The position numbers were made by a program, and so were the translations under genes. The notes beneath the pieces were generated by a model, which was given only the letters and a program-made list of their open reading frames with translations, did no database searches and had not been told where the DNA came from. From an uncultured virus (IMG/VR IMGVR_UViG_3300027728_000010) (lineage: Duplodnaviria > Heunggongvirae > Uroviricota > Caudoviricetes), in the IMG/VR virus record IMGVR_UViG_3300027728_000010: 64,000 bases of DNA. One strand, written 5' to 3'. Below are positions 4,998-25,662 of this stretch, piece after piece (the first letter of the stretch is position 1; the number at the start of each line of letters is the position of its first letter).

Positions 4998-5144
4998 TTA
5001 CTTTTTGTTGTAATACTTTTCAACAATTTTTGTTACGGCACTTTTAACAGTTTGTGTTGTTTGTTGTGCTTGTGTTTGAGTTTGTTGAGTTTGTGTTTGA
5101 GTTTGTGTTTGTTGTTGATTGTTTTTACATCCGCATCCTGCCAT
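4998..5144 (-). CDS. small protein MAGCGCK... with Gln/Thr repeat (48 aa)
   Basis: ORF read manually; TATTTAT motif upstream on the minus strand; below ORF-track cutoff. Confidence 0.7.
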   Translation of the reverse strand: MAGCGCKNNQQQTQTQTQTQQTQTQAQQTTQTVKSAVTKIVEKYYNKK

Positions 5145-5248
5145 GGTTATAATTTTTAATTAGTTTATTTTATTATAAATATCTTTGTTTAAAACTTTAA
5201 ATCATTTTTTGAATTAATCAATTCTTTTTTTTGTAATATTTATAAAAT

Positions 5249-6448
5249 ATGTCATATAAAAATATTATCAGAAATATAATTTTAGAAAACGAGCAAGATG
5301 AAGTAATTATTTCACCTAGCGAATTTTTAGAACTATTGAAGTATGTGAATGATGATGTTGCAAATATTCTTAGATTACCTCAATATAGAAACAAAAAAAT
5401 TATAATTGACGGAAATTTGAATCTTAATAACAATAAAGACATTCAAAATCTTAATTTAATATCAAAGATAAATGGTGATTTAGATATATCATATTCTAAC
5501 GTTGACGTTTTTGACAAAGATAAAGCTAAAAGTATTATAGACTATGGAAGTAGAAGAGAAATTATTAGAAAACAAAAAGAACTACAAAAAAGACTCAATT
5601 ATTTAGACCAATTAAGAAAAGAAGACGCTTGGAATATAAATAATAAAAAATTAATATCTTACCAAACAGAAGCTTTATATGAATACTTAGAAAATAATAA
5701 CTACCCCCAAGAAATTGAAGAAGACGGTGAAATAGTTTTGGAAGACAAATATAACTTATATCCTAACAATTATAACCATTATGGTGGTAAATCATTTACG
5801 TGGTTAGGAGAAGAAGGTATGGAAAATGAATACATAGTTTTTGATTCAAGAACAATTGAACAAAATGCTCGAGAAGCTATTGAATCTAGAATTGATGAAT
5901 TAGGTTATGATGCATTTGCAAATTGGGTATGGGAAGACCACCTTGATTCAGAAAGGGTTAGAGACTGGTTACGATGGTATATAGAAGGACCTATGTATGA
6001 TAGTCCTGAAGATTTTGGATTAGAAGAAAAACTTACAAAAGAACAAGAAAATTATATTAGAATCTATGAAGAAAAAATGTCTAAACTACAATACAGAATT
6101 GATAACGAAGATTTGGATGAAGAGACTGAAAACAGTTTGGAAGAAGAAATATCTGATTTAGAAGAACTTATTGAAGACATCAAAGAAAATCCAAAAGGTG
6201 ATTTTGACGAAAATGAAATTGAAGAGGCTATTGAAATGTGGGTAGATAATAATGAAGATGAATTTTTATCTTATTTTAAAGAAACTGGTCTTGATAAGAG
6301 TGATATTTTGGATTATGTCGACCAAGGAGATGTTATTAATTTTATAATTAACCATGATAGTTGGGGTAATATATTTGGAAGTTATGATGGTGACCACGAC
6401 GAATTAAATGTAAATGGACTTGATTTTATTATTATTAGATACGACTAA
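5249..6448 (+). CDS. acidic phage protein, IIRNIILE leader
   Basis: 399-aa very acidic ORF with TATTTATA upstream. Confidence 0.75.
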   Translation: MSYKNIIRNIILENEQDEVIISPSEFLELLKYVNDDVANILRLPQYRNKKIIIDGNLNLNNNKDIQNLNLISKINGDLDISYSNVDVFDKDKAKSIIDYGSRREIIRKQKELQKRLNYLDQLRKEDAWNINNKKLISYQTEALYEYLENNNYPQEIEEDGEIVLEDKYNLYPNNYNHYGGKSFTWLGEEGMENEYIVFDSRTIEQNAREAIESRIDELGYDAFANWVWEDHLDSERVRDWLRWYIEGPMYDSPEDFGLEEKLTKEQENYIRIYEEKMSKLQYRIDNEDLDEETENSLEEEISDLEELIEDIKENPKGDFDENEIEEAIEMWVDNNEDEFLSYFKETGLDKSDILDYVDQGDVINFIINHDSWGNIFGSYDGDHDELNVNGLDFIIIRYD

Positions 6449-15242: not shown

Positions 15243-15315
15243 GGTCCCGTAGTGTAATGGATTAACATAAGGAGCTTCTACCTCTTTGATTCAGGTTCGA
15301 ATCCTGACGGGACTA
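15243..15315 (+). tRNA. tRNA-Arg(UCU)
   Basis: cloverleaf, loop CTTCTAC, T-loop TTCGAAT. Confidence 0.9.
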
Positions 15316-15355
15316 CTAATTTATAAATTATTTTCATAACAATATATTTATTATT

Positions 15356-15841
15356 ATGAAACTTAACGAACAAGTCAAAAGAATCAAAAACCTGATGTAT
15401 GAACAGGTTCAAAATGATATATCCTTTTTTGGCGAAATAAACGACCAATTTGGAAAAAGAATTGAACTTAGAACCCCTGATGGTGACCTTATTGGATATA
15501 TTCATTTAATATCCATGTCTAATGGACATGATTTAGATTATGACATTCCAAGACTCAATAACAAAGATGAATGGTGTGTTAAAAATTGTGATAAAGATTT
15601 TTTTAATGACAATAATTCTTCTTATCTTTATGACTTGTTTGTAATGGATAACTATAGAGGTCAGGGACACTCTAAAACACTTCTTGATACTGCACATAAC
15701 ACGGCCAAAGATTGTGGTTTAGATTACGTCACACTAATTACACACAGAGAAAACCATCCGGCTCAAAACTTGTATAAAAAGTACGGATATGACCTACATA
15801 GAACAGACGATACAAAAGATTTTTATTTTTATTCACTTTAA
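15356..15841 (+). CDS. GNAT acetyltransferase with LNEQVKRIKNLM leader
   Basis: LFVMDNYRGQGHSKTLL and NHPAQNLYKKYGY motifs. Confidence 0.88.
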   Translation: MKLNEQVKRIKNLMYEQVQNDISFFGEINDQFGKRIELRTPDGDLIGYIHLISMSNGHDLDYDIPRLNNKDEWCVKNCDKDFFNDNNSSYLYDLFVMDNYRGQGHSKTLLDTAHNTAKDCGLDYVTLITHRENHPAQNLYKKYGYDLHRTDDTKDFYFYSL

Positions 15842-16006
15842 TTTTTAATTTTTTATGGAAGACATTTTTGAACAACAACACTACGAGTTCATCAGCTCAG
15901 AAGATTATTTTCAATACATCAAAGAAATGTTTGAATACGAAGAAAAACTTGCTTTACAATCAGAAGAATAAGAATTATCCTTAGACTAAGGTTAATAGAT
16001 AATATA

Positions 16007-16075
16007 AGTCGTATAGCTCAGTTGGTAGAGCAATCCTTAATGGACGTGTCACAGGTTTGAATCCCGTTGCGACTT
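16007..16075 (+). tRNA. tRNA-like element/pseudo-tRNA with truncated anticodon arm
   Basis: acceptor AGTCGTA/TGCGACT, canonical D-arm, anticodon arm reduced to TCC-TTAAT-GGA. Confidence 0.6.
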
Positions 16076-16162
16076 ATCAAAATTAAAAAAGGTGATGGAA
16101 ACGACACCTTTTTTTTTGGTCTTATATTTATTATTAAATAATAAAAAAACAAAATACAAAAT

Positions 16163-16643
16163 TATGAAGTTTTTAATTTCGGAAGAAGAAAAAGGTAGAA
16201 TTTTGGAAATGCATAAAAATGCTACTTCAAAACAATATTTAATGGAACAAACTATAGCGAACACTCAAGCGGCATCATTTGTTAATGAATTTAATCGAGT
16301 TATGAAGGCTTATAAATTACCAACTTATGTTGCAAAATTCATTAAAGGTGCGGATGATTATCATGGTAATATTGTGATTTACAAAGACAGTAAAGAACTG
16401 GTTAAATCACCACAAGATTTTGGTATCGCGGTTACCGCAAATTTGTCAACAGGTGTACAACAAGAAAAGGACCCATTAGATAATTATGGTACAAAATTAG
16501 TCGATGGTAAACTTATACAATTTACAAATAGTTTAATAAATGTTTTAAATACTGCAGATGCGACTGTAAAAAACCAATTGGCTGCGGCAGTGAGGAGTGG
16601 AGTCGATGCGGTTAAAAAACAATTATCCCCAACACAAAAATAA
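16163..16643 (+). CDS. hypothetical protein with ISEEEKGRILEMH leader
   Basis: ATG at 16163 downstream of TATTTAT motif. Confidence 0.7.
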
Positions 16644-16679
16644 AAAATTTAACCCCATCTTTTCATGTGGGGTTTTTTA

Positions 16680-17096
16680 TTATATAGATTTCTCAAAATA
16701 ACATTTTGAAATCTTTTTAACTACGGTTTGGTAGTCCGAGAACCAATACCATAAAACGGTTTCATCTTTTGTGTTTATTATTAAACCATAATTAAAATCA
16801 CCCTCAAGGATTTTAACTTTTAAGGTATTATCACCATAATTTTCATATTCAATAGGTAAAACACTTATTTCTGACCCATCATACGAATAGGTTGATGTTT
16901 TTTGATTTAAATCCAAAACGTACTTTGTTTGTTCATTATTTATTTCATTAACATAGTCAGGGTTAGTAATGACCGAATCTAAAGTTGTCTTATGGTACGT
17001 GACCATTTCTTGTCTTTCAAACACATGGATTATAATTTTTTGAGAAAAAGTTAAACAACAAACTAAAGTTGCAATTGTTAAAAAAAGTGTTTTCAT
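16680..17096 (-). CDS. secreted protein (signal peptide)
   Basis: MKTLFLTIATLVCCLTFSQ Bacteroidota-type signal peptide ending before Gln. Confidence 0.7.
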   Translation of the reverse strand: MKTLFLTIATLVCCLTFSQKIIIHVFERQEMVTYHKTTLDSVITNPDYVNEINNEQTKYVLDLNQKTSTYSYDGSEISVLPIEYENYGDNTLKVKILEGDFNYGLIINTKDETVLWYWFSDYQTVVKKISKCYFEKSI

Positions 17097-17192
17097 TCTA
17101 TTTGTATTATTTTTACAAATATATACATAAAAATCAAACTAAAAAATTATTTAAAGTTTTTTTGATTTTAAAAATTTTTGTATCTTTGTGTT

Positions 17193-17690
17193 ATGAAAAA
17201 CGAACTACCATACGAAAAAACAGGAAACGCGATTAAAGGATATGTTGAATCTGTAATCGCTAAAAGTGAAAGCCGCGATTGTGTTGTAAGAGCTTTTGCA
17301 TCTTCATTCGATGTGTCTTATGATTTTGCACACAAATACGTTGCAGATGAGTTTGGAAGAAAACCAAGAAAAGGAACTTACGGTACTGTAGCTAAGCTTG
17401 TTAATATGGCCGATAAATTAATTAAAGTGAATGGTAAAAAAATCTGTCCTCTTGGTGTAAGACATAATGATTATATGTTAAGGTCACTGATGTATGACGT
17501 TACAGTGAAAGGTGTAACTAAAAAAAGAAACATGACTGTTGGGACATTTGTTAAACAAAACCCAAAAGGAACTTTTTTTGTATTAGTTAAAAGTCACGCT
17601 TTTACAATTAAAGATGGTATTGTAATTGGAAACCCTGAAGATGCAACTAAAACAAAACGACCTATGAGATGTGCATTTGAAATAAAATAA
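17193..17690 (+). CDS. hypothetical protein with DCVVRA...HAF motif (possible Cys-His hydrolase fold)
   Basis: ORF after TATCTTTG promoter. Confidence 0.6.
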   Translation: MKNELPYEKTGNAIKGYVESVIAKSESRDCVVRAFASSFDVSYDFAHKYVADEFGRKPRKGTYGTVAKLVNMADKLIKVNGKKICPLGVRHNDYMLRSLMYDVTVKGVTKKRNMTVGTFVKQNPKGTFFVLVKSHAFTIKDGIVIGNPEDATKTKRPMRCAFEIK

Positions 17691-17705
17691 ACTATTCAGT
17701 GATTC

Positions 17706-18191
17706 TTAATAGTTATTATTTTTAACTCTTTCTCTACCACTTGAAGCCGATAGTTCTCCACCAATAACACTTACTAAACTAGCAGCAATTAAGGCTGCTT
17801 GAAGGACTTCTTCGCCAGACATTTCACCCATAGTCGCTCCAATTATTGCCCCCAATGTGCCAAAAATACCATAGTTCATTAATTTTCTTTTGAGATATTG
17901 GTTTCTTGTTATTTCTTTTTTTCCACTAGAGTCACCGTAATCATAATATTTATATGATTCGTTTACATTTGAATCCATCGCCGATTCTATTTCTTTAGCA
18001 ATTTTGGGGTTCTTTTTAAAAAACGCAACTAACTCTTGAAATTCATCAATTTTTTCTAAATCCATTTTCAAAAAATTAGATTCAAGGTCCATTTCTTGAG
18101 AAGAAGAAATCCAATCTTCTTCATTTTCTTTGATAACTCGTCTAACAATACGAGCCAAATCGTTTTCAGTAAGTCTTATAATTCTTTTCAT
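17706..18191 (-). CDS. membrane protein with IIRLTENDL leader
   Basis: leader motif plus two C-terminal hydrophobic segments. Confidence 0.7.
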   Translation of the reverse strand: MKRIIRLTENDLARIVRRVIKENEEDWISSSQEMDLESNFLKMDLEKIDEFQELVAFFKKNPKIAKEIESAMDSNVNESYKYYDYGDSSGKKEITRNQYLKRKLMNYGIFGTLGAIIGATMGEMSGEEVLQAALIAASLVSVIGGELSASSGRERVKNNNY

Positions 18192-18288
18192 AATTTTTAT
18201 TTATAAATACTTGTTAAATTAAAAAAAGATTACTATATTTGTAAAGGATTTGAAACTTTTTAGAAACAACGATATATTTATAACGAAA

Positions 18289-18396
18289 ATGGAAAATACA
18301 CTCAGACATATGGTCATTTGTAACAAGCCGAGCAATCAGTGGTCGTTTAGCTATATTACGATTAATCAGTCGAGGGTAGTTTCACTTATGAGTTAA
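18289..18396 (+). CDS. putative attenuator leader peptide (35 aa)
   Basis: MENTLRHMVICNKPSNQWSFSYITINQSRVVSLMS; promoter motifs upstream, terminator downstream. Confidence 0.6.
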   Translation: MENTLRHMVICNKPSNQWSFSYITINQSRVVSLMS

Positions 18397-18426
18397 AAAC
18401 GTTTAACAACATAATAAAAGGAATGT

Positions 18427-18458
18427 AAAACCCGAGACTTAAAATCTCGGGTTTTTTT
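18427..18458 (+). terminator. intrinsic terminator (putative attenuator) before tRNA operon
   Basis: AAAACCCGAGA-cttaaaa-TCTCGGGTTTTTTT. Confidence 0.85.
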
Positions 18459-18472
18459 ATTCCCAAAAATTT

Positions 18473-18545
18473 GGTTCCTTAGTATAGTTTGGTAATACCC
18501 CGGCTTTGTAACCCGGAGTCGTCAGTTCGAACCTGACAGGAACCT
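18473..18545 (+). tRNA. tRNA-Thr(UGU)
   Basis: cloverleaf, loop TTTGTAA, C-C mismatch at base of anticodon stem. Confidence 0.85.
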
Positions 18546-18581
18546 CAAAAGAAAAAGTTCTTTGAAATATTGGCTTTATTT

Positions 18582-18652
18582 TGTTCCCTCGTCTAATGGA
18601 AGGACACGCGGTTTTGGTCCGTGGAATTGGGGTTCGAGTCCATGGGGAACAA
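18582..18652 (+). tRNA. tRNA-Gln(UUG)
   Basis: loop TTTTGGT; acceptor TGTTCCC/GGGAACA. Confidence 0.85.
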
Positions 18653-18658
18653 CAATAA

Positions 18659-18744
18659 GGAGAGATGGTAGAGTTGGTTTATTGCACCGGTCTTGAAAAC
18701 CGGAGAACTTCACGGTTCCGCGGGTTCGAATCCCGCTCTCTCCT
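18659..18744 (+). tRNA. tRNA-Ser(UGA)
   Basis: long variable arm, loop CTTGAAA. Confidence 0.92.
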
Positions 18745-18814
18745 CGAATCAATACAGAATGAATGATACGAATCCTCAAAGTTCGAAAGGAGTCAGGGTA
18801 TTGATTTTTTAACT

Positions 18815-18887
18815 AGGGTAGTTGACTAATTGGTAAGTCACCACGTTTGGGACGTGGACGATGTCGGTTCGAGTCCGGTCTACCCTA
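18815..18887 (+). tRNA. tRNA-Pro(UGG)
   Basis: loop TTTGGGA. Confidence 0.9.
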
Positions 18888-18959
18888 CTATAAATAAATA
18901 AACAAATAAAAAACAAGTATCATGGAAAGTGACAAGTATGACAAGAGTCGTAAATAGAA

Positions 18960-19030
18960 TCCCTCGAAGCTTTAAAGTGAAGCTTTCCGCTTTTAACGGA
19001 AAGAAGTCGGAGCGTTACCGTCCGGGGGAA
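18960..19030 (+). tRNA. tRNA-Lys(UUU), atypical T-loop AGCGTTA
   Basis: loop CTTTTAA; acceptor TCCCTCG/CGGGGGA. Confidence 0.8.
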
Positions 19031-19093
19031 CAAATTTTAAGTATTTTTTAAGTTTTATGTGTTTTTTAGGTTCGACTTGATATTTATTAATAA

Positions 19094-19726
19094 ATGGGAA
19101 TTATGAAAAATTGTATTAAATGTCAAAAAGAGTTTGAACCAAAAAAAGGTTTGATTAGTTATTGTTCTTTAATGTGCCGTAATAGTAGGGTGTGGTCAGA
19201 AAAAGATAAGGAAAAAAAATCTAAATCAAACAAAAATTCTGAAAAAGTTAAAGAAGCAAATAGAAAAAGACCTGATGGTTTTTGGAACCAAATCGCGGAA
19301 AAAAGAAAAGAAAACGATAAGATAAAAATTATCAATTCAAAATATGAAGATTTAAAATTCGAATCACTAAAAAAAAGGATTTACTATGAACAAGATGGTT
19401 CATGTAATAAATGTGAATTAAAAACTTGGATGGGGGTTGAAATTCCATTAGAGTTAGAACATAAGGACGGAAATCACTTTAATAACCAAAGAGAAAATTT
19501 AGAGTTACTTTGCCCAAATTGTCACGCATTGACTGACACATGGAGGGGTAGAAATAAAACAAAACAACTTAGAAATAAAATTTCAGATGAAAAACTTTTA
19601 AATGTCTTATTAATACATAATTGGAATATGAGACAAGCATTAATAGAAGTTGGTTTAGCGGCTAAAGGGGGAAATTATAATAGATGTCACAAGTTAAAAA
19701 AAGAATACCAAAATTTGAAGGATTAA
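19094..19726 (+). mobile_element. free-standing HNH homing endonuclease in tRNA cluster
   Basis: CNKC...PLELEHKDGNHFNNQRENLELLCPNCH. Confidence 0.88.
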
Positions 19727-19792
19727 AAATTTAGTAAAACTGAGCGATTTATACCAAAAAATGGTTATATTCGTAAAGAAAAACTAAAATAA

Positions 19793-19866
19793 GCACTCTT
19801 AGCTCAGTTGGTAGTAGCGGTTGTCTTACATACAACAGGTCACAGGTTCGAATCCTGTAGGGTGTA
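19793..19866 (+). tRNA. tRNA-Val(UAC)
   Basis: loop CTTACAT. Confidence 0.9.
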
Positions 19867-19928
19867 CGAGGAGACCGTTACTAATTCATAGTCCTTATGT
19901 GACGACGGAATCATAGAATTAGATTTTT

Positions 19929-20009
19929 GGGAGAGTTGAGCAATTGGTTGGCTCAGCAGACTGTAAATCTGTCGCGAAAGCCTTGGGGGTTCGAGTCCCT
20001 TCTCTCCCA
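19929..20009 (+). tRNA. tRNA-Tyr(GUA)
   Basis: loop CTGTAAA, variable arm. Confidence 0.9.
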
Positions 20010-20020
20010 CGAGTGAAAAA

Positions 20021-20114
20021 TGTCGGTTCGAGTCCGTCAGTAGTTTAAGTAGGTAAAACAACCCGGTAGGGTGATGGGGGTTCGAGTCCTCCCTTAGTGT
20101 AATTAGGTAACACG
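20021..20114 (+). pseudogene. tandem tRNA fragments (T-arm/D-arm/short hairpin/T-arm/D-arm)
   Basis: two GGTTCGAGTCC T-arms and two D-arm-like hairpins, no anticodon loop or paired acceptor. Confidence 0.5.
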
Positions 20115-20124
20115 TTCAAGTATT

Positions 20125-20202
20125 GGACCAGAAGCTTAAGTGGTTATAAGCTTTCGCCTGTTAAGCGAGGGATAGTAGGTTCGAGCCCTACCTGACCCGC
20201 CA
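20125..20202 (+). tRNA. tRNA-Asn(GUU)
   Basis: loop CTGTTAA, encoded CCA, two acceptor mismatches. Confidence 0.8.
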
Positions 20203-20361
20203 AAGATACAATGTTGGGTTCCCCAGTGGTAACGTCTCGAGTAAGTAGACCACAAGAATCTAGTAAGAAGTGACAGATGGGTTCATCACGACTAAAGTAT
20301 CGACCACCGAGACGCTGGCGAGCTGAGGGGGTGGTTAAGAAATACTCCTAAATACGCACCA

Positions 20362-20438
20362 CGGCACATATACCCTCCGCCTGATACGCGGTTGAAAGGT
20401 TAATTGGTTTCATGTAGGTTCAATTCCTACTGTGCCGA
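20362..20438 (+). tRNA. atypical tRNA-Ile(GAU)-like RNA lacking a D-arm
   Basis: acceptor CGGCACA/TGTGCCG, anticodon arm CCGC-CTGATAC-GCGG, T-arm GTAGG-TTCAATT-CCTAC. Confidence 0.6.
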
Positions 20439-20495
20439 CAAAGAGGAGTAACTTGCGTAGGAGCCTTGGGGAACTGCAGTCCCACTACGCTCTTT

Positions 20496-20579
20496 GGAAG
20501 ATAAACCCTGATGGGGATGGGGTCCGCCTGCTAAGCGAGATGTACCTTCGGGTATTTGGTTCGATTCCAATGTCTTCCA
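20496..20579 (+). tRNA. tRNA-Ser(GCU)
   Basis: loop CTGCTAA, variable arm TACC-TTCG-GGTA. Confidence 0.8.
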
Positions 20580-20602
20580 CAAATAATTAAAAAGGAGGTA
20601 AA

Positions 20603-21058
20603 ATGAACCGAGTATTTAGAAAGGTTGACGGAGACGCAATTCCTGATATTGTAAAACACACTATAGATGTTCTTCAAGAATGTCCATATGCTGAAATACA
20701 TATTGGAACTGACTCTCAAAACCACAGAAGAAGTACGGTGTATGTAACGGCAATTGCTTATAGATACGGAAACCGTGGAGTTCACTACATTTATCATAAA
20801 CAAAAAGTTAAAAAGATACGTGATAAGTGGACAAGATTATGGAATGAAGCCGATTATTCAATCGAAGTTGCAAATTGGTTAACAGGTAAAATTAAAGTTC
20901 AAGTACAAATTGACCTTGATTACAACTACCAAGAAAAACACTTTAGTTCAAAGTTGGTTGGACCTGCTGTTGGTTGGATTAACTCTTTGGGTTATAAGGC
21001 AAATATTAAACCTAATAACCAAATTGCAACAAGAGCGGCAGATTTTCATTGTCGTTAA
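20603..21058 (+). CDS. RNase H-like YkuK (DUF458) family protein
   Basis: IHIGTDSQ, RLWNEA..SIEVA, IDLDYN, ATRAAD motifs. Confidence 0.85.
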   Translation: MNRVFRKVDGDAIPDIVKHTIDVLQECPYAEIHIGTDSQNHRRSTVYVTAIAYRYGNRGVHYIYHKQKVKKIRDKWTRLWNEADYSIEVANWLTGKIKVQVQIDLDYNYQEKHFSSKLVGPAVGWINSLGYKANIKPNNQIATRAADFHCR

Positions 21059-21063
21059 TATAT

Positions 21064-21136
21064 GAGAGGTTGTCCGAGCGGCGTTAGGTCTGTGGTTGCA
21101 ACCCACAGTACGGGGGTTCGAGTCCCTCACCTCTCT
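21064..21136 (+). tRNA. tRNA-Cys(GCA)
   Basis: loop TTGCAAC. Confidence 0.9.
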
Positions 21137-21145
21137 CAATAAAAT

Positions 21146-21227
21146 GCCCTCGTGGTGGAATGCAGACACATCCGGTTTAGACCCGGATTCCGTTAAAGGA
21201 GTGAGAGTTCGAGTCTCTCCGAGGGTA
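21146..21227 (+). tRNA. tRNA-Leu(UAG)
   Basis: loop TTTAGAC, variable arm. Confidence 0.9.
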
Positions 21228-21287
21228 CAAAAAATTCAATATATAATTTTATCTATACATCGATATATTTATAAATAAAAATTAATT

Positions 21288-21620
21288 ATGAAAAAAATTA
21301 TAAGACTTACAGAATCTGAACTAACTAATATCATTAAACGAGTTATTAAAGAATCTGGTTTTAGAGCAAGATTTAAAAATCAAAAAGATAATCGTTGGGT
21401 TGATGAAAAGGATAATTGGGTTACTTATGACCCCGATTTAGAAAATCACGGATATTATGATTTTGAATATGAACCATACAACGATGTGGATGAATTTGAA
21501 GATATACCTGAAGACATCAGAGAAAAATTGTTTGGACATAAAACGGGTAGAGAATTCTTTGATACCTATAAAAAACGAGATGGTGGGTTCCAATACTCAA
21601 GAAAAAAAGAGGGGTTTTAA
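21288..21620 (+). CDS. hypothetical protein with IIRLTESEL leader
   Basis: leader motif; TATTTATA upstream. Confidence 0.75.
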   Translation: MKKIIRLTESELTNIIKRVIKESGFRARFKNQKDNRWVDEKDNWVTYDPDLENHGYYDFEYEPYNDVDEFEDIPEDIREKLFGHKTGREFFDTYKKRDGGFQYSRKKEGF

Positions 21621-21689
21621 GTTATAATTAAAAAATCTTAGATACAATTTTTTTCTATATAACAATATATTTATAAATAAAAATTAATT

Positions 21690-22007
21690 ATGAGAAATAG
21701 ATTAACTGAAAGAGATTTATCACGTATTGTTAGACGTGTAATCAAAGAAGACAAAAACGATAGAAGGGAAATCAATAGTATTCTTGACGATATATTTGCA
21801 ACTTTCGAATTTTCTGAAAAAGGAAACGACGAAATGATTACATTGGCTAAGTTTATTGTTGAAAAACCAAATGAGGTTGCAAGTTCAATTATGGCAAGAC
21901 TTAAAAAAGGTTATGGTGCTCGTGAGGAAGATGATACTTTTGGAACCTATACAACAAGGGGAGATGAATTAAGAGACTTGGAAGATAGATTAGGTCGAAG
22001 AATGTAA
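21690..22007 (+). CDS. hypothetical protein with RLTERDL leader
   Basis: leader motif; upstream region near-identical to that of 21288. Confidence 0.75.
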   Translation: MRNRLTERDLSRIVRRVIKEDKNDRREINSILDDIFATFEFSEKGNDEMITLAKFIVEKPNEVASSIMARLKKGYGAREEDDTFGTYTTRGDELRDLEDRLGRRM

Positions 22008-22129
22008 TAAAAAAATTAATATGAACGTGACCCCTCTCCAAAAAAGAGGGGTTTTTTGTTTTAAAATATTTTACAAAGTATTTGGCCAATTGAAATGAAG
22101 TCCATATATTTGTAGAAACAATAAAACAT

Positions 22130-22468
22130 ATGGGGACTTACATTTACACTTACAAGAAAAAATTAGATAAAAAAGCAATTCTTAATGGACAAGAAGTTAA
22201 GGTTGGTGAAGCTACTTTTTTATGTAAACAAGATTGGTCAGGAAATTACACATCACAAGAAAAACGTGAAATGACAAGAGCCACATGTTTACTTGAGCAA
22301 GACCAACCCGACTACATTACATTTGGTGAAGAAGTTTATAAAAATAATAAACGTGGTCTTTGGAGTGATGGTAGTGGTTTTTGGACAGGAATTGACCACA
22401 AAAACGACTATGTTGGAAAGTTAGAAAAAATTGGTAGAAAATATTTTATAAAGTGTTTGGTAAATTAA
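22130..22468 (+). CDS. hypothetical protein
   Basis: 112-aa ORF after TATATTTG. Confidence 0.7.
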   Translation: MGTYIYTYKKKLDKKAILNGQEVKVGEATFLCKQDWSGNYTSQEKREMTRATCLLEQDQPDYITFGEEVYKNNKRGLWSDGSGFWTGIDHKNDYVGKLEKIGRKYFIKCLVN

Positions 22469-22667
22469 AATAAAGTTCTTATATTTGTAAAACAAACGGG
22501 GGTGATAAAATGTGATGGTGGAATCACCCCCACACGAGAGGGAAAAAGTTCTTTGATTTAAAATATTGTGGTGGTAAGCAAGGGGAAACTCGTAAAGTTC
22601 ATTAACCAGTTGGCTCAAGATGGTGAAACGAGAGTGTGAGTCAACTACTAAATCACAAAAAAAATAT

Positions 22668-22765
22668 AGTCAGGTGGCGGAATGGTAGACGCACCCGAAA
22701 GGTAGGTAACGGTATGAAGCCCGATTAAATAATCCTAAATACAGGTTCGAATCCTGTCCTGACTA
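22668..22765 (+). ncRNA. tRNA-like RNA with intact acceptor, D and T arms but no canonical anticodon arm
   Basis: AGTCAGG/CCTGACT acceptor, GGCGGAATGGTAGACGC D-arm, ACAGG-TTCGAAT-CCTGT. Confidence 0.65.
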
Positions 22766-22774
22766 CAAATAATT

Positions 22775-22849
22775 GGTGTGGTAGCTCAGTAGGTAGAGCA
22801 AAGGAACGGAAAATCCTTGTGCCGGTGGTTCGATTCCACTCCCATACCA
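22775..22849 (+). tRNA. tRNA-Phe(GAA)-like with 8-nt anticodon loop
   Basis: stem AAGGA/TCCTT typical of Phe; loop ACGGAAAA. Confidence 0.65.
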
Positions 22850-22856
22850 CAAATAT

Positions 22857-22939
22857 CGCGGGATAGTAAGTAGTTGGTAGCTGGCGAGGCTCATAACCTC
22901 GTGTCTTTGACCCCGGTGGTTCGAGCCCACCTCCCGCAA
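22857..22939 (+). tRNA. tRNA-Met(CAU), initiator-like
   Basis: CGCGGG 5' end with C1:A72 mismatch; loop CTCATAA; elongated variable region. Confidence 0.8.
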
Positions 22940-22950
22940 AACAATCGTAG

Positions 22951-23679
22951 TTAATCCACCTCCACGTGGTGATTGTTGGAAACAGGTAATGCTGGCTGAG
23001 TGATTAACAAACGTTCATTGACAATATTGGTTATAATATCAAGGTATTTTTTTGATGTTGAGGGTTTAACGTATTTTTGTTCGGAAACATCAATAATACA
23101 TAGGTCTATTTTTAAGTCGTGACAAAGTTTAGTTTTAGATTTATCGTTTTCCTGAATTTTATTTAATTTATCTATACCATAGATAGGTTCATAATGAAAG
23201 ATACCGTTGAGTTCTACAGCAAAATTGATAGTAGGGAAATAAATGTCCAATTCAGAACCGATAGTATCTTTTTTATTAAAATCTATCGGTAGTTCTGGAT
23301 AAATAACTTTTAATTGGTTCTCCAACCAAATCTCAAGTTTAGAACGTCGATTTCCGTGTGTTTTCTTTCTATTATTAAAAGTGGTAGAACACGACTTAGA
23401 ACAGAAAAAATTACCTGAATTGTTCTTTTTATTTGAGGATTCTAATCTCTCAAATTCAAGGTCACAATTCTTACATTTTATGATGTTATGTAAAACTTTA
23501 CGTGAATTATAGTAACATTCATCAGAACAATAAATGTGACGATTACGGTTATTTTTTAATTCAAAGGTTATTAGTTTTTTTTCAACACCAAAAGATTTTT
23601 TACATTGTAAACATTCACAAAGTAATTTATTGGTTGATTTTGTATTGTTATATTCTTCTTCGGTAAATAGTGTTTTCAT
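22951..23679 (-). mobile_element. putative homing endonuclease (Zn-finger repeats + Vsr/DUF559-like nuclease)
   Basis: CxxC/FCSxxC repeats; SKLE...ELDIYFP..FAVELNGIFHY...DKSK. Confidence 0.8.
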
Positions 23680-23767
23680 AATGTAAGGTGTATATCTATA
23701 AATATCTTGGTTTCGTTAAAAACTATGTTTTCTAAACCTTTTTTACGAAACTTTTTATTAAATTTAT

Positions 23768-23841
23768 ACTGATGTATCTCAATTGGTGAGAGCAGGACGC
23801 TTATATCGTCAAGGCTATGGGTTCAAGTCCCTTCATCAGTA
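23768..23841 (+). tRNA. tRNA-Ile(UAU)
   Basis: loop CTTATAT; acceptor ACTGATG/CATCAGT. Confidence 0.8.
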
Positions 23842-24056
23842 CGGGAGTGTCGACAGTAGAGTTCTACTTGAGAAAGAGGTAACACGCACTTAAAACGGGG
23901 GTTACAAAATAGTCAAGTCGTTTATAAAGTTTTGGTTGATAAAAACTTTCGTTTTATGGAGATGGTTTAATGTGAAAAACCTTCACCCGTGATGTTAGTA
24001 GGATTGGCCTCCTCATTCACGTAAATGTGACACCGACCCCAAAGGATGTCACAAAT

Positions 24057-24129
24057 GCGGAAGTAGCTCAATTGGTAGAGCTCCTGCCTTCCAAGCAGGT
24101 TGTTGAGAGTTCGAGTCTCTTCTTCCGCT
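24057..24129 (+). tRNA. tRNA-Gly(UCC)
   Basis: loop CTTCCAA. Confidence 0.92.
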
Positions 24130-24215
24130 CGAAAGATGAGTTTCCCTACATCCGGGGTTAGTGAGAAACTTAAAGGGGGACAAGTGGTATACAAGTCCAC
24201 GACTCATCTTAATTT

Positions 24216-24287
24216 GGCCCATTCGTCTAAAAGTAAGGACATTTGGTTTTCATCCAAAAAATCTCGGAGCGTTACCGGGATGGGCTA
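24216..24287 (+). tRNA. tRNA-Glu(UUC), atypical T-loop AGCGTTA
   Basis: loop TTTTCAT. Confidence 0.82.
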
Positions 24288-24312
24288 CAAACCTGTTGAA
24301 ATAAAACAGGAA

Positions 24313-24395
24313 GGTCAGGAGTGTAAAGAGACATGGTGTTGAATCCGTCTGTTAAAGATGGTTGCTCATTGTAGGTTCGAATCCTATCCTGACTT
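24313..24395 (+). ncRNA. tRNA-like RNA with aberrant central arm
   Basis: GGTCAGG/CCTGACT acceptor and GTAGG-TTCGAAT-CCTAT T-arm; no 7-nt anticodon loop. Confidence 0.55.
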
Positions 24396-24507
24396 CACAA
24401 GTGCTCACCACGCTACCCATCAGAACAGCGCCCCAGGGTGAGTTAGTGTAAACGCTTAATAGAACGAAGGCCAAGTTCAGAGCAGGGAGCGGGTCCTGCA
24501 AACATTT

Positions 24508-24581
24508 GGTCCATTGGTGTAATAGTAACATTTGTCCCTGTCACGGACAAGCCCTCGGAGCGTAACCGGGATGGACCGCCA
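24508..24581 (+). tRNA. tRNA-Asp(GUC), atypical T-loop AGCGTAA
   Basis: loop CTGTCAC, encoded CCA. Confidence 0.85.
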
Positions 24582-24602
24582 AACTTATTAAAATTAAAAA
24601 CT

Positions 24603-24875
24603 ATGAAAACATTTGAAGATTTAGAATTTGAACAATTAAATGACGCGCCATATATGGTTGGTAAAAAGTCTCGTATGCATTTTGACAACGGATTTGGTGT
24701 ATCTGTTGTTTCACACACTCATTCATACGGAGGTCGTTCCGGTCTTTATGAAGTGGCAGTATTGGACTCTGATGGTAATCTTACTTACGAGACTCCTGTG
24801 ACAAGTGACGTAATTGGTTACTTGAGTGAAGAAGATGTGACTGATGTTATGAAACAAGTTCAAGAATTGAAATGA
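24603..24875 (+). CDS. conserved phage protein (FDNGFGVSVV...GLYEVAVL)
   Basis: 90-aa ORF. Confidence 0.75.
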   Translation: MKTFEDLEFEQLNDAPYMVGKKSRMHFDNGFGVSVVSHTHSYGGRSGLYEVAVLDSDGNLTYETPVTSDVIGYLSEEDVTDVMKQVQELK

Positions 24876-25153
24876 TGAAAAATAAACACAAAAAAGCTAT
24901 TGATAAAATTATGGATTGGTTTGACTTTTCCAAAGTTCACCAAACTATGGTTGCTTTAGAATGGAAATGGGCATCTGCAGAAGATGGAATCCCAACTGAA
25001 CCAGAAATAAGGGAAATGGCGAGAAAACTAATGGAAGACTCTATTAATCAAAAAGTTAGTATTGGAACAGGAGGGTTTAGAGTTCATTATGATAAAAAAG
25101 ATGATATGATTACTTTATCATTTGTTATTTCAGAATGGTATGAAACTTTTTAA
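24872..25153 (+). CDS. hypothetical protein
   Basis: 93-aa ORF. Confidence 0.7.
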   Translation: MMKNKHKKAIDKIMDWFDFSKVHQTMVALEWKWASAEDGIPTEPEIREMARKLMEDSINQKVSIGTGGFRVHYDKKDDMITLSFVISEWYETF

Positions 25154-25347
25154 TTAATTATATGAAAAAATATTTACACACATTTTTGGGAGTTATTACA
25201 ACTCTATTTGGGGCATTTTGTTTGGTTTCTTTTATGAATGAAACTTTTAGTTGGGTATCAATCTTATATCTATTAGGTTCAGTTATTTTTCTTGGACCTG
25301 CAGTTGATTCTTGGACTCAAGTATATAAAAACTTTATCTAATTTTTT

Positions 25348-25421
25348 GGTCTTATAGCTCAGTTGGTTAGAGCGCCGGTCTCATAAACCGTAGGTCCTTG
25401 GTTCGAACCCAAGTTGGACCA
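25348..25421 (+). tRNA. tRNA-CAU (elongator Met or lysidine Ile2)
   Basis: loop CTCATAA. Confidence 0.85.
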
Positions 25422-25662
25422 CATAAATGCTAATTTTTTGGTGGTGGTTGTTAATCTACCACCATTTTTTTTGACTTTACATTTTTAATATGATATTTTT
25501 AAAATAAAAATAACTATGGAAATTTCACACTTATTGGCCTTATCTTTTCCTATTGGAATTGTAGTTTTTGTTATTGTAAAAGTTATATTTTACAAAAATA
25601 AGTAATTTTTATTCGTTTATTAGTATTTATTAAGTAAGAATAAACGTTCAAGAATTATAAAA

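Follow-up and report, generated by a model that had tools for sequence, protein, structure and literature searches.

Leader-peptide attenuation is classically known from the amino-acid operons, where trpL, hisL, thrL, pheL, leuL and ilvL provide the standard examples. A leader may also read tRNA status itself, as in the T-box riboswitch, which chooses between terminator and antiterminator; to our knowledge, T-boxes are not usual in the phylum Bacteroidota. Ribosome-mediated attenuators that sense translation stress have reportedly been found in Term-seq work by Dar and co-workers. With regard to phages, the tRNA regions of T4 and T5 hold small stable RNAs and short ORFs, and we know of no terminator-gated leader that heads a tRNA cluster of the T4/T5 type.

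Leader-peptide attenuation is described as likely in Flavobacterium in one report (PMC9723704), and antibiotic-resistance leaders such as that of mef/mel(msrD) are presented as general translation-stress attenuators (PMC4335068). In Sinorhizobium, both an attenuator-derived RNA (rnTrpL) and the accompanying leader peptide (peTrpL) are reported to have functions in trans (PMC7968998, PMC7298713). Phage tRNA arrays, for their part, are discussed as tools against host codon bias and tRNA-cutting defences (PMC10264068, PMC11555353). The control of their expression is hardly known, and the open-access literature yielded no account of phage tRNA genes governed by attenuation. As tRNA genes are not regulable at translation, a terminator gate read by ribosomes would be a simple route by which tRNA supply could be coupled to the state of translation.

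The window analysed herein is a stretch of 64,000 nt from an uncultured member of the Caudoviricetes (IMG/VR IMGVR_UViG_3300027728_000010); it is AT-rich (27-38 % GC), phage-like, and has 18 tRNA genes located from 15243 to 25422. Ahead of one group of these lies a unit of promoter, short ORF and terminator (Table 1) whose layout, judged by its sequence, corresponds structurally to a leader-ORF attenuator that precedes tRNA genes. Such a unit would have its ORF translated, sense a signal, switch RNA pairing and so modulate termination. In common with the classical attenuators it has a promoter, a short and presumptively translated ORF, an intrinsic terminator and following genes without a promoter of their own, and three mutually exclusive pairings (1:2, 2:3 and 3:4) can be drawn in the window. 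The original prediction, made from the letters of the window, had called this the layout of classical attenuation. The conserved order of promoter, ORF, terminator and promoterless tRNAs upholds that description, but a regulatory codon cluster is missing from it. Unlike the classical systems, the phage unit has no run of codons for a single amino acid, targets tRNAs rather than enzymes, has a longer ORF with a partly conserved peptide, and possesses a candidate antiterminator that is weak and not conserved across the family.

Table 1. Features of the leader unit and of the tRNA block behind it (window coordinates)
Feature	Coordinates	Strand	Details
Promoter, Bacteroidota sigma-A type	18211..18241	+	TTG 18211-18213, 20-nt spacer, -7 box TATATTTG 18234-18241
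5′ leader, conserved, A/U-rich, SD-less	18246..18288	+	From the alignment; holds TATTTATAA motif 18275-18283
Leader ORF, 35 codons	18289..18396	+	MENTLRHMVICNKPSNQWSFSYITINQSRVVSLMS; ATG 18289, TAA ends 18396; rare G/C-ending codons
Region 1, codons 2-7, base of hairpin P1	18292..18307	+	Pairs with region 2 in the minimum-energy fold of the window
Region 2, GTCGAGGGT and U-rich tail	18369..18383	+	Candidate antiterminator 5′ strand, alternatively P1 3′ strand
Hairpin P2	18386..18414	+	Inner stem 18392-18397/18402-18407, outer stem 18386-18390/18410-18414
Intrinsic terminator	18427..18458	+	11-bp stem 18427-18437/18445-18455, 7-nt loop, 7 T; -14.5 kcal/mol
Putatively gated block	18473..21228	+	Thr(UGU), Gln, Ser, Pro, Lys, HNH gene, Val, Tyr, Asn, 151-aa ORF, Cys, Leu

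The two-box pattern TTG-N18-21-TAnnTTTG to which the promoter belongs occurs at 22 sites on the plus strand of the window versus 5 on the minus strand, with an extended consensus of TTGnnAAATTAAAA...TAtaTTTGTA. When scored by a matrix derived from 14 further promoters in the window, itself withheld from training, the leader promoter reaches 28.2 bits and ranks 8 of 127,920 positions, which agrees with the original placement of a promoter at about 18234; it is also conserved among the homologs. It is the full two-box pattern and the matrix that are informative here, as the TANNTTTG motif alone is not enriched (124 found versus 117.6 expected). A second promoter motif had been proposed at about 18275 (TATTTATA), and is indeed present and conserved, but it lies inside the predicted transcript and nothing marks it as a promoter.

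In Flavobacterium, TAnnTTTG is given as the sigma-A -7 box, located at -12 to -5, and Shine-Dalgarno sequences are described as absent (PMC9723704); the start contexts of the 52 long ORFs in the window are similarly A/T-rich and devoid of Shine-Dalgarno sequences. From this promoter class and these starts we infer that the host belongs to the Bacteroidota and, if the -7 box sits as in Flavobacterium, that transcription would begin at about 18246. The gene directly upstream (17706-18191) lies on the opposite strand, so that the terminator at 18427-18458 is not its own.

A total of 43 distinct versions of the unit, from 100 % down to 73 % identity, are found in related phage contigs from IMG/VR and metagenomes, with one of them (L055) being identical to the window. 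The unit is common to a family of large freshwater phages. These relatives were collected via the neighbouring 170-aa protein, an exact 23-mer, an exact 20-mer and a gapped pattern; the last of these returned 50 stretches, with 17 unique sequences (20 loci) proving unrelated and being left out. Codons 7-9 and 17-19 were specified by the search patterns for every version, as were codons 20-24 for one exact-word set, so invariance at these codons is uninformative. A blast comparison of positions 17000-20500 with 50,697 phage records gave matches solely to tRNAs and HNH genes, and no close phage.

The conservation of the leader ORF, which would be expected of an attenuator of this kind, is evident amongst these relatives, with the frame being open in all 42 complete versions (34-36 codons) and the 43rd cut by the end of its contig. 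Each of four indel sites within the ORF measures 3 nt (the L068 group has one deletion, the L073/78/80/87/93 group one deletion plus two insertions), and the 5′ leader, linker and terminator loop of the alignment display indels of 1, 2 and 6 nt. The position of the stop is constant, with TGA replacing TAA in four versions. On a parsimony tree of the 30 distinct ORFs there are 116 substitutions (28, 35 and 53 at the first, second and third codon positions; 36 synonymous and 80 non-synonymous), none of which creates a stop, where the expected fraction is 0.047 for each (P ~0.004; 0.001 by simulation). A conservative count of ~64 events, comprising 49 variable columns and ~15 extra states counted by eye, gives P ~0.05 with the indels uncounted. 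The lack of stops together with the in-frame indels indicates that the reading frame is probably under selection, and hence that the ORF is probably translated. An initial inclination to read the unit as non-coding RNA, based on close relatives alone (for which dN/dS looked like 1), was reversed by this wider set, with dN/dS standing at ~0.5 on the tree (pairwise 0.21-1.41 over 55 pairs). Invariant residues comprise H7-M8-V9, P14, W18-S19-F20, Y23, T25 and an R-x-F-S-x-M-S end before the stop, whilst all four synonymous codons occur at codon 16 (ACN) and at codon 30 (TCN). Ribosome-arrest peptides of the TnaC/SecM type are defined by a conserved C-terminal stall motif, and the R-x-F-S-x-M-S end is the conserved C-terminal feature of the phage peptide.

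The codon usage of the ORF is extreme for this genome. Its GC3 is 0.49, versus 0.21 in the 52 long ORFs (13,171 codons), ten of its codons each account for less than 10 % of their synonymous family, and none of 346 windows of 35 codons taken from long ORFs scores as poorly. The earlier observations of a 35-codon ORF, of 17 different amino acids in its first 22 codons and of unusually rare G/C-ending codons are all therefore correct. Each of the 30 distinct ORFs contains 7-12 rare codons and falls within the lowest 0-2.3 % of gene windows. The conserved rare codons are few and specific (GTC, CCG, CAG, TCG, AGC, ACG and AGG), with AAG being variable and the first six codons after the start varying freely; CCG (codon 14) and ACG (codon 25), which lie outside the search patterns, are unchanged across all 30. 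Tandem repeats or a cluster of codons for one amino acid are absent from the ORF, the rare codons being scattered instead. Synonymous divergence is 0.04-0.23 in the leader versus 0.35-0.56 in the neighbouring 170-aa gene for the same genome pairs. Taken with the retained rare codons, this low divergence is, at the level of sequence comparison, a sign of selection that acts also on nucleotides or codons.

At the RNA level, the best conserved structures are the terminator and P2. The former, correctly anticipated at 14 nt ahead of the first tRNA, has 99.0 % of cells paired across 36 sequences, with 4 of its 11 pairs changed on both sides. The latter has 98.1 % of cells paired and harbours the stop codon (18394-18396) in its 5′ arm; one pair turns from A-U to U-A in 12 of the 36 sequences, and an A-U pair becomes G.U where the stop changes from TAA to TGA. 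RNAalifold on the same 36 sequences confines two-sided changes to P2 (one pair) and the terminator (four pairs), with no covarying helix inside the ORF, so that the covarying antiterminator named in the original prediction did not emerge from it. The fold z-score is -2.9. The base of P1 is paired in 71.5 % of cells across the 36 sequences and is thus weakly conserved; this undoes the support that had seemed to come from register-shift changes in L040, L042 and L051. A change from U77/A29 to C77/G29 (12 versus 24 sequences) was likewise discarded as evidence of pairing, since L040 is recombinant-like, with its 3′ part inherited as a block. In the leader, UUAUAA and AAAAUG could form a further, closing helix with YAUUUU...UUAUGA at the end of the ORF; this helix is almost invariant, with no two-sided change among its pairs. 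Rfam 15 yields no T-box match and no family at E < 0.4 over the element, the best matches, both over the terminator part, being AgrB (27.0 bits, gathering 40, E 0.49) and Thr_leader (24.7 bits, gathering 55, E 0.5). Unlike a T-box, the phage element is about half the size, contains a conserved ORF and lacks an Rfam match.

Downstream of the unit, tRNA-Thr(UGU) follows the T run at a distance of 14 nt, and does so at 10-15 nt in 36 of the 37 loci with enough sequence, whereas the upstream flank varies between contigs. The exception (L056) has the unit behind a protein gene and with a degenerate -7 box, followed by a promoter and protein gene and no tRNA. In the window, the predicted transcription unit continues past Leu, takes in a further two small ORFs and ends at the next terminator (22029-22053); it resembles T4 and T5 in that short non-tRNA genes would be co-transcribed with a phage tRNA cluster. 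No site above 4.0 bits by the sigma-A-type matrix occurs on the plus strand of 18300-22077, a stretch with 10 tRNAs and 4 ORFs, and L018 has 13 tRNAs behind the unit with no site of the same class above 13.1 bits. A promoter downstream of the terminator, which would have spoken against the original prediction, is thus absent between terminator and tRNAs as far as the phage's own class is concerned. One candidate that overlapped the T run was rejected, having two mismatches in the TA of its -7 box or else a start inside the tRNA. With no promoter of the phage's class, the tRNAs would be expressed by read-through of the terminator, and it is in this sense that the leader ORF and terminator probably gate the amount of phage tRNA made; promoters of another, unmodelled class could exist downstream, which counts against a gate that works by read-through alone. 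A metatranscriptome contig of 186 nt (X7) covers 18429-18606, reaching from the terminator across tRNA-Thr to within tRNA-Gln; it shows no transcript ends, and may represent DNA carry-over. Other tRNA groups of these phages are preceded by a second structured leader, which is unrelated to the first.

The element on which a switch would depend is the predicted antiterminator. Just as proposed, GTCGAGGGT (18369-18377) can pair with ACCCGAGAC (18430-18438) apart from a tandem G.A/A.G mismatch, and 18367-18378 is the best partner of the terminator 5′ arm within 18289-18415 (-12.7 kcal/mol). This duplex is equalled by 54 of 2000 shuffles (p ~0.03) and by 2.0 % of 503 genomic windows, making it modestly unusual. 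It is also weak, comprising 7 pairs and a 2x2 internal loop that together close a loop of ~50 nt. In folding predictions, a 30-nt footprint that masks codons 3-7, 12 or 20 leaves the nascent RNA to 18438 folded into the candidate antiterminator, whilst ribosome-free RNA, or a footprint at the stop codon, does not; the behaviour foreseen for stalled and unstalled ribosomes is thereby reproduced in silico. With the terminator 3′ arm included, it is invariably the terminator that forms. Across the 36 sequences the antiterminator columns are 94 % and 91 % paired, with two-sided changes at three pairs in two sequences. Shuffles of individual sequences give p 0.003-0.11 for the duplex in the clade of the window and 0.08-0.26 in a second clade, and in the five most divergent versions (L073, L078, L080, L087 and L093) the pairing is at chance (p 0.15-0.77) with the best duplex located elsewhere. 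Arms paired with their cognate partners are scarcely better than those with non-cognate ones (-10.8 versus -9.7 kcal/mol). The complementarity originally noted is thus modestly above chance in the window, but not above chance in the five most divergent versions.

If the unit acts by ribosome-mediated attenuation, host RNA polymerase would start at the strong Bacteroidota-type promoter and produce a leader transcript of ~210 nt with a translated ORF of 34-36 codons rich in rare G-ending codons. It would then pass P2, with the stop codon inside, and meet the terminator 10-15 nt before tRNA-Thr(UGU), such that tRNAs would be made only by those polymerases that read through. A ribosome keeping pace would reach the end of the ORF and cover region 2, allowing the terminator to form. 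A ribosome lagging on rare codons would leave region 2 free to pair with the terminator 5′ arm (18430-18438), and the tRNA genes would be transcribed. Direct masking of the terminator is not an option, as the ORF ends 31 nt from the terminator stem and a ribosome could not reach it. As with leaders of the mef/mel(msrD) type, the ORF is without amino-acid-specific runs and read-through would increase whenever the ribosome slows; those leaders answer ribosome-targeting drugs and reside on bacterial chromosomes and mobile elements, whereas here the setting is a phage and the output is tRNA. We regard attenuation in this general form, with the original prediction included as a special case, as the likeliest of the readings, though a tentative one that falls somewhat short of an even chance. 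Against it weigh the weak antiterminator, with its cognate pairing barely above non-cognate and no RNAalifold covariation, the poorly paired base of P1, the missing single-amino-acid codon run, the 31 nt that preclude direct masking, the unit without a tRNA in L056, and a partly conserved peptide that would fit equally a peptide acting on its own.

That last point leads to the main competing explanation, namely that the unit is an autonomous early gene for a trans-acting peptide of 34-36 residues (for example in host takeover or tRNA metabolism) with a promoter and terminator of its own, the terminator being leaky so that a constant share of read-through supplies the tRNA block and nothing is sensed. 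The conserved frame, the dN/dS of ~0.5, the invariant residues and the use of all four synonymous codons at codons 16 and 30 are as expected of such a gene, as are the lack of antiterminator conservation in divergent versions and the L056 arrangement, in which the unit closes a protein operon and is not followed by a tRNA. A strongly promoted early gene would, however, be odd in having the worst codon usage of any 35-codon stretch, and this in all 30 versions. Nor does a free-standing gene account for synonymous sites 2-5 times less diverged than those of the neighbouring gene, or for the tRNA-Thr junction being retained despite a variable upstream flank. The peptide is also without known kin: it has no relative in PHROGs, its best look-alike in a protein atlas scores 0.76 (below the useful level), and a word search of 5.8 billion proteins with the 48-aa TTG-start form of the ORF gave no candidate, meaning that the ORF has gone unrecorded by gene callers. 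An autonomous peptide is thus somewhat less likely than attenuation, though it deserves serious consideration. Even if the unit turns out to be no more than a small gene whose terminator leaks, it would represent a conserved and unannotated peptide gene that gene callers have overlooked.

Alternatively, the terminated transcript of ~210 nt might itself be the product, as a stable trans-acting small RNA, perhaps with a dual function like rnTrpL, and the tRNAs a by-product. The entire transcript is 2-17 % diverged, against 35-56 % at neighbouring synonymous sites, has two covarying 3′ hairpins at its end as do many sRNAs, folds with the z-score given above, and stands alone in L056; the unrelated structured leader ahead of other tRNA groups would also be in keeping with this, and attenuator RNAs with trans functions are on record (PMC7968998, 10.1101/606483). 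As in the rnTrpL/peTrpL case, transcript and peptide could both be products, which would explain the conservation of both, although there is no sequence relation to that system and no sign of a trans target for the phage unit. A pure RNA would hardly account for selection on an open frame, no helix supported by covariation lies within the ORF, and no Rfam family is found at E < 0.4, rendering a small RNA improbable as the principal function.

The exact form of attenuation originally predicted, whereby almost any host tRNA, on being depleted or cleaved, would free GTCGAGGGT for ACCCGAGAC, fares little differently. The 17 amino acids in 22 codons and the rare codons (10 of 35) would suit such a sensor, folds modelled under a masking footprint follow the proposal, no better partner for the terminator 5′ arm exists in 18289-18415, and defences that cleave tRNAs are on record, as is rescue by tRNAs of phage origin (PMC10264068, PMC11555353). 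The pairing is nonetheless no better than chance in the five divergent versions, and the conserved codons are few and specific rather than a broad sample of the code, with the first six after the start codon free to vary. As a sub-case of attenuation, a sensor of any tRNA thus appears rather improbable.

A leader that binds a ligand independently of ribosomes (as a riboswitch, or through a protein or tRNA) and sets P1 against the antiterminator via a core of CAUAUGGUC, CCGAGC, CAGUGGUCGUU, AGCUAUA and ACG would fit the invariance of that core even at synonymous sites, the overlap of the P1 3′ strand with the antiterminator strand (the usual riboswitch layout) and the strict linkage to tRNA-Thr, yet it is very unlikely given that the core invariance is partly imposed by the search patterns, that P1 and the interior show no covariation, that frame conservation goes unexplained, and that Rfam, including its T-box model, returns nothing.

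Returning to attenuation by a translating ribosome, the identity of the conserved codons suggests a further variant, in which the leader would measure the phage's own tRNA output and form a homeostatic loop on the tRNA array. Most of the conserved rare codons end in G (CCG, CAG, TCG, ACG and AGG), and the first five genes past the terminator are Thr-UGU, Gln-UUG, Ser-UGA, Pro-UGG and Lys-UUU, with Arg-UCU located upstream. Among the six rare codons that are conserved best, four match these five head tRNAs, for which a rough, post hoc estimate of coincidence is p ~0.035. With U34 tRNAs scarce, wobble decoding of NNG codons would be slow, the ribosome would lag, and the terminator would be bypassed so that more tRNA is made; with U34 tRNAs plentiful, the ribosome would arrive at the stop codon, P2 would be opened and transcription would end. 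Such a loop is a speculative proposal to which we attach a low probability; if true, it would represent a form of control that has not been described for tRNA genes. Were ribosome-mediated attenuation in its broader sense correct, leader-ORF attenuation would extend to phages of Bacteroidota and to non-coding targets.

With a length of ~250 nt, the unit is a compact cassette for which natural variants exist, both as loci without the unit and, in L056, as a unit minus tRNAs. In a 292-kb relative that is 99 % complete (G001), blast over the entire record matches neither the ORF nor P2 nor the tRNA-Thr part, and the 111,867 of its 291,867 bases that were scanned for tRNAs contain no tRNA-Thr. In L010, the same promoter and 5′ leader are followed by an ORF of 5 codons and then a tRNA, with the terminator absent.

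A second structured leader is conserved between the window and related phage contigs, and this element possesses a strong promoter of its own (42.7 bits on the matrix built from the window's sigma-A-type promoters). Its 5′ start forms a GGGGGU...ACCCCC hairpin, whilst the 3′ part returns weak Rfam matches to YrlA (27.5 bits) and to a tRNA-like structure (23 bits). The element harbours no terminator, and continues directly into tRNA-Phe or tRNA-His.

With regard to the 35-codon ORF leader preceding tRNA-Thr(UGU), the related contig L010 displays the same promoter and 5′ leader at 5100-5305, with a 5-codon ORF replacing the 35-codon ORF, the P2 hairpin and the terminator, and with tRNA-Ile(GAU) following next. 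In L010 the leader cassette is thereby represented by a naturally occurring 'deletion' variant. Within the block of tRNA genes and ORFs downstream of the window's leader terminator sits an HNH endonuclease gene, flanked by tRNA-Lys on one side and tRNA-Val on the other.

Genes for a family of small proteins are dispersed across the tRNA region, their products having in common the N-terminus M-K-(R/K)-x-x-R-L-T-E-x-D-L-x-R-I-V-R-R-V-I-K-E; searching PHROGs with this family returned no match except a single weak one (E 0.0039). Immediately upstream of the start codon of all three window members is the near-palindromic motif TATTTATAA(ATA), which is also contained in the 35-codon ORF leader. Across the window this motif occurs 13 times against 5.6 expected, a count reached in none of 100 shuffles.

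Features of the tRNA region and of related phage contigs (L numbers, own coordinates; L056 carries the 35-codon ORF leader unit with no tRNA behind it)
Feature	Location	Strand	Basis
Second structured leader, ~190-290 nt	window 22457-22775	+	comparison with relatives
Its copies in relatives	L008 6848-7047; L015 5080-5295; L016 4550-4760; L023 745-929; L056		
HNH endonuclease gene	window 19094-19726	+	PHROG 14736, E 1.4e-25
Small-protein family	window 17706-18191	-	shared N-terminus
Small-protein family	window 21288-21620; 21690-22007	+	shared N-terminus
Small-protein family, relatives	L056 794-1060; L015 4571-4980		shared N-terminus
TATTTATAA(ATA) sites	window 18198-18209; 21266-21277; 21668-21679; 18275-18283; 6 other places		
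tRNA missed by ARAGORN	window 16007-16075	+	Rfam only, 40.9 bits
tRNA-Sec-like match, below threshold	window 20496-20578	+	Rfam, 32.4 bits (gathering score 47)
HDV-like ribozyme match	window 22940-23007	+	Rfam RF02682, 33.1 bits, E 0.005

The HDV-like ribozyme match scores below the RF02682 gathering score of 44, and its first base is the last base of the tRNA-Met called by ARAGORN (22856-22940). HDV-like 'theta' ribozymes adjoining phage tRNAs are described in PMC10879173.
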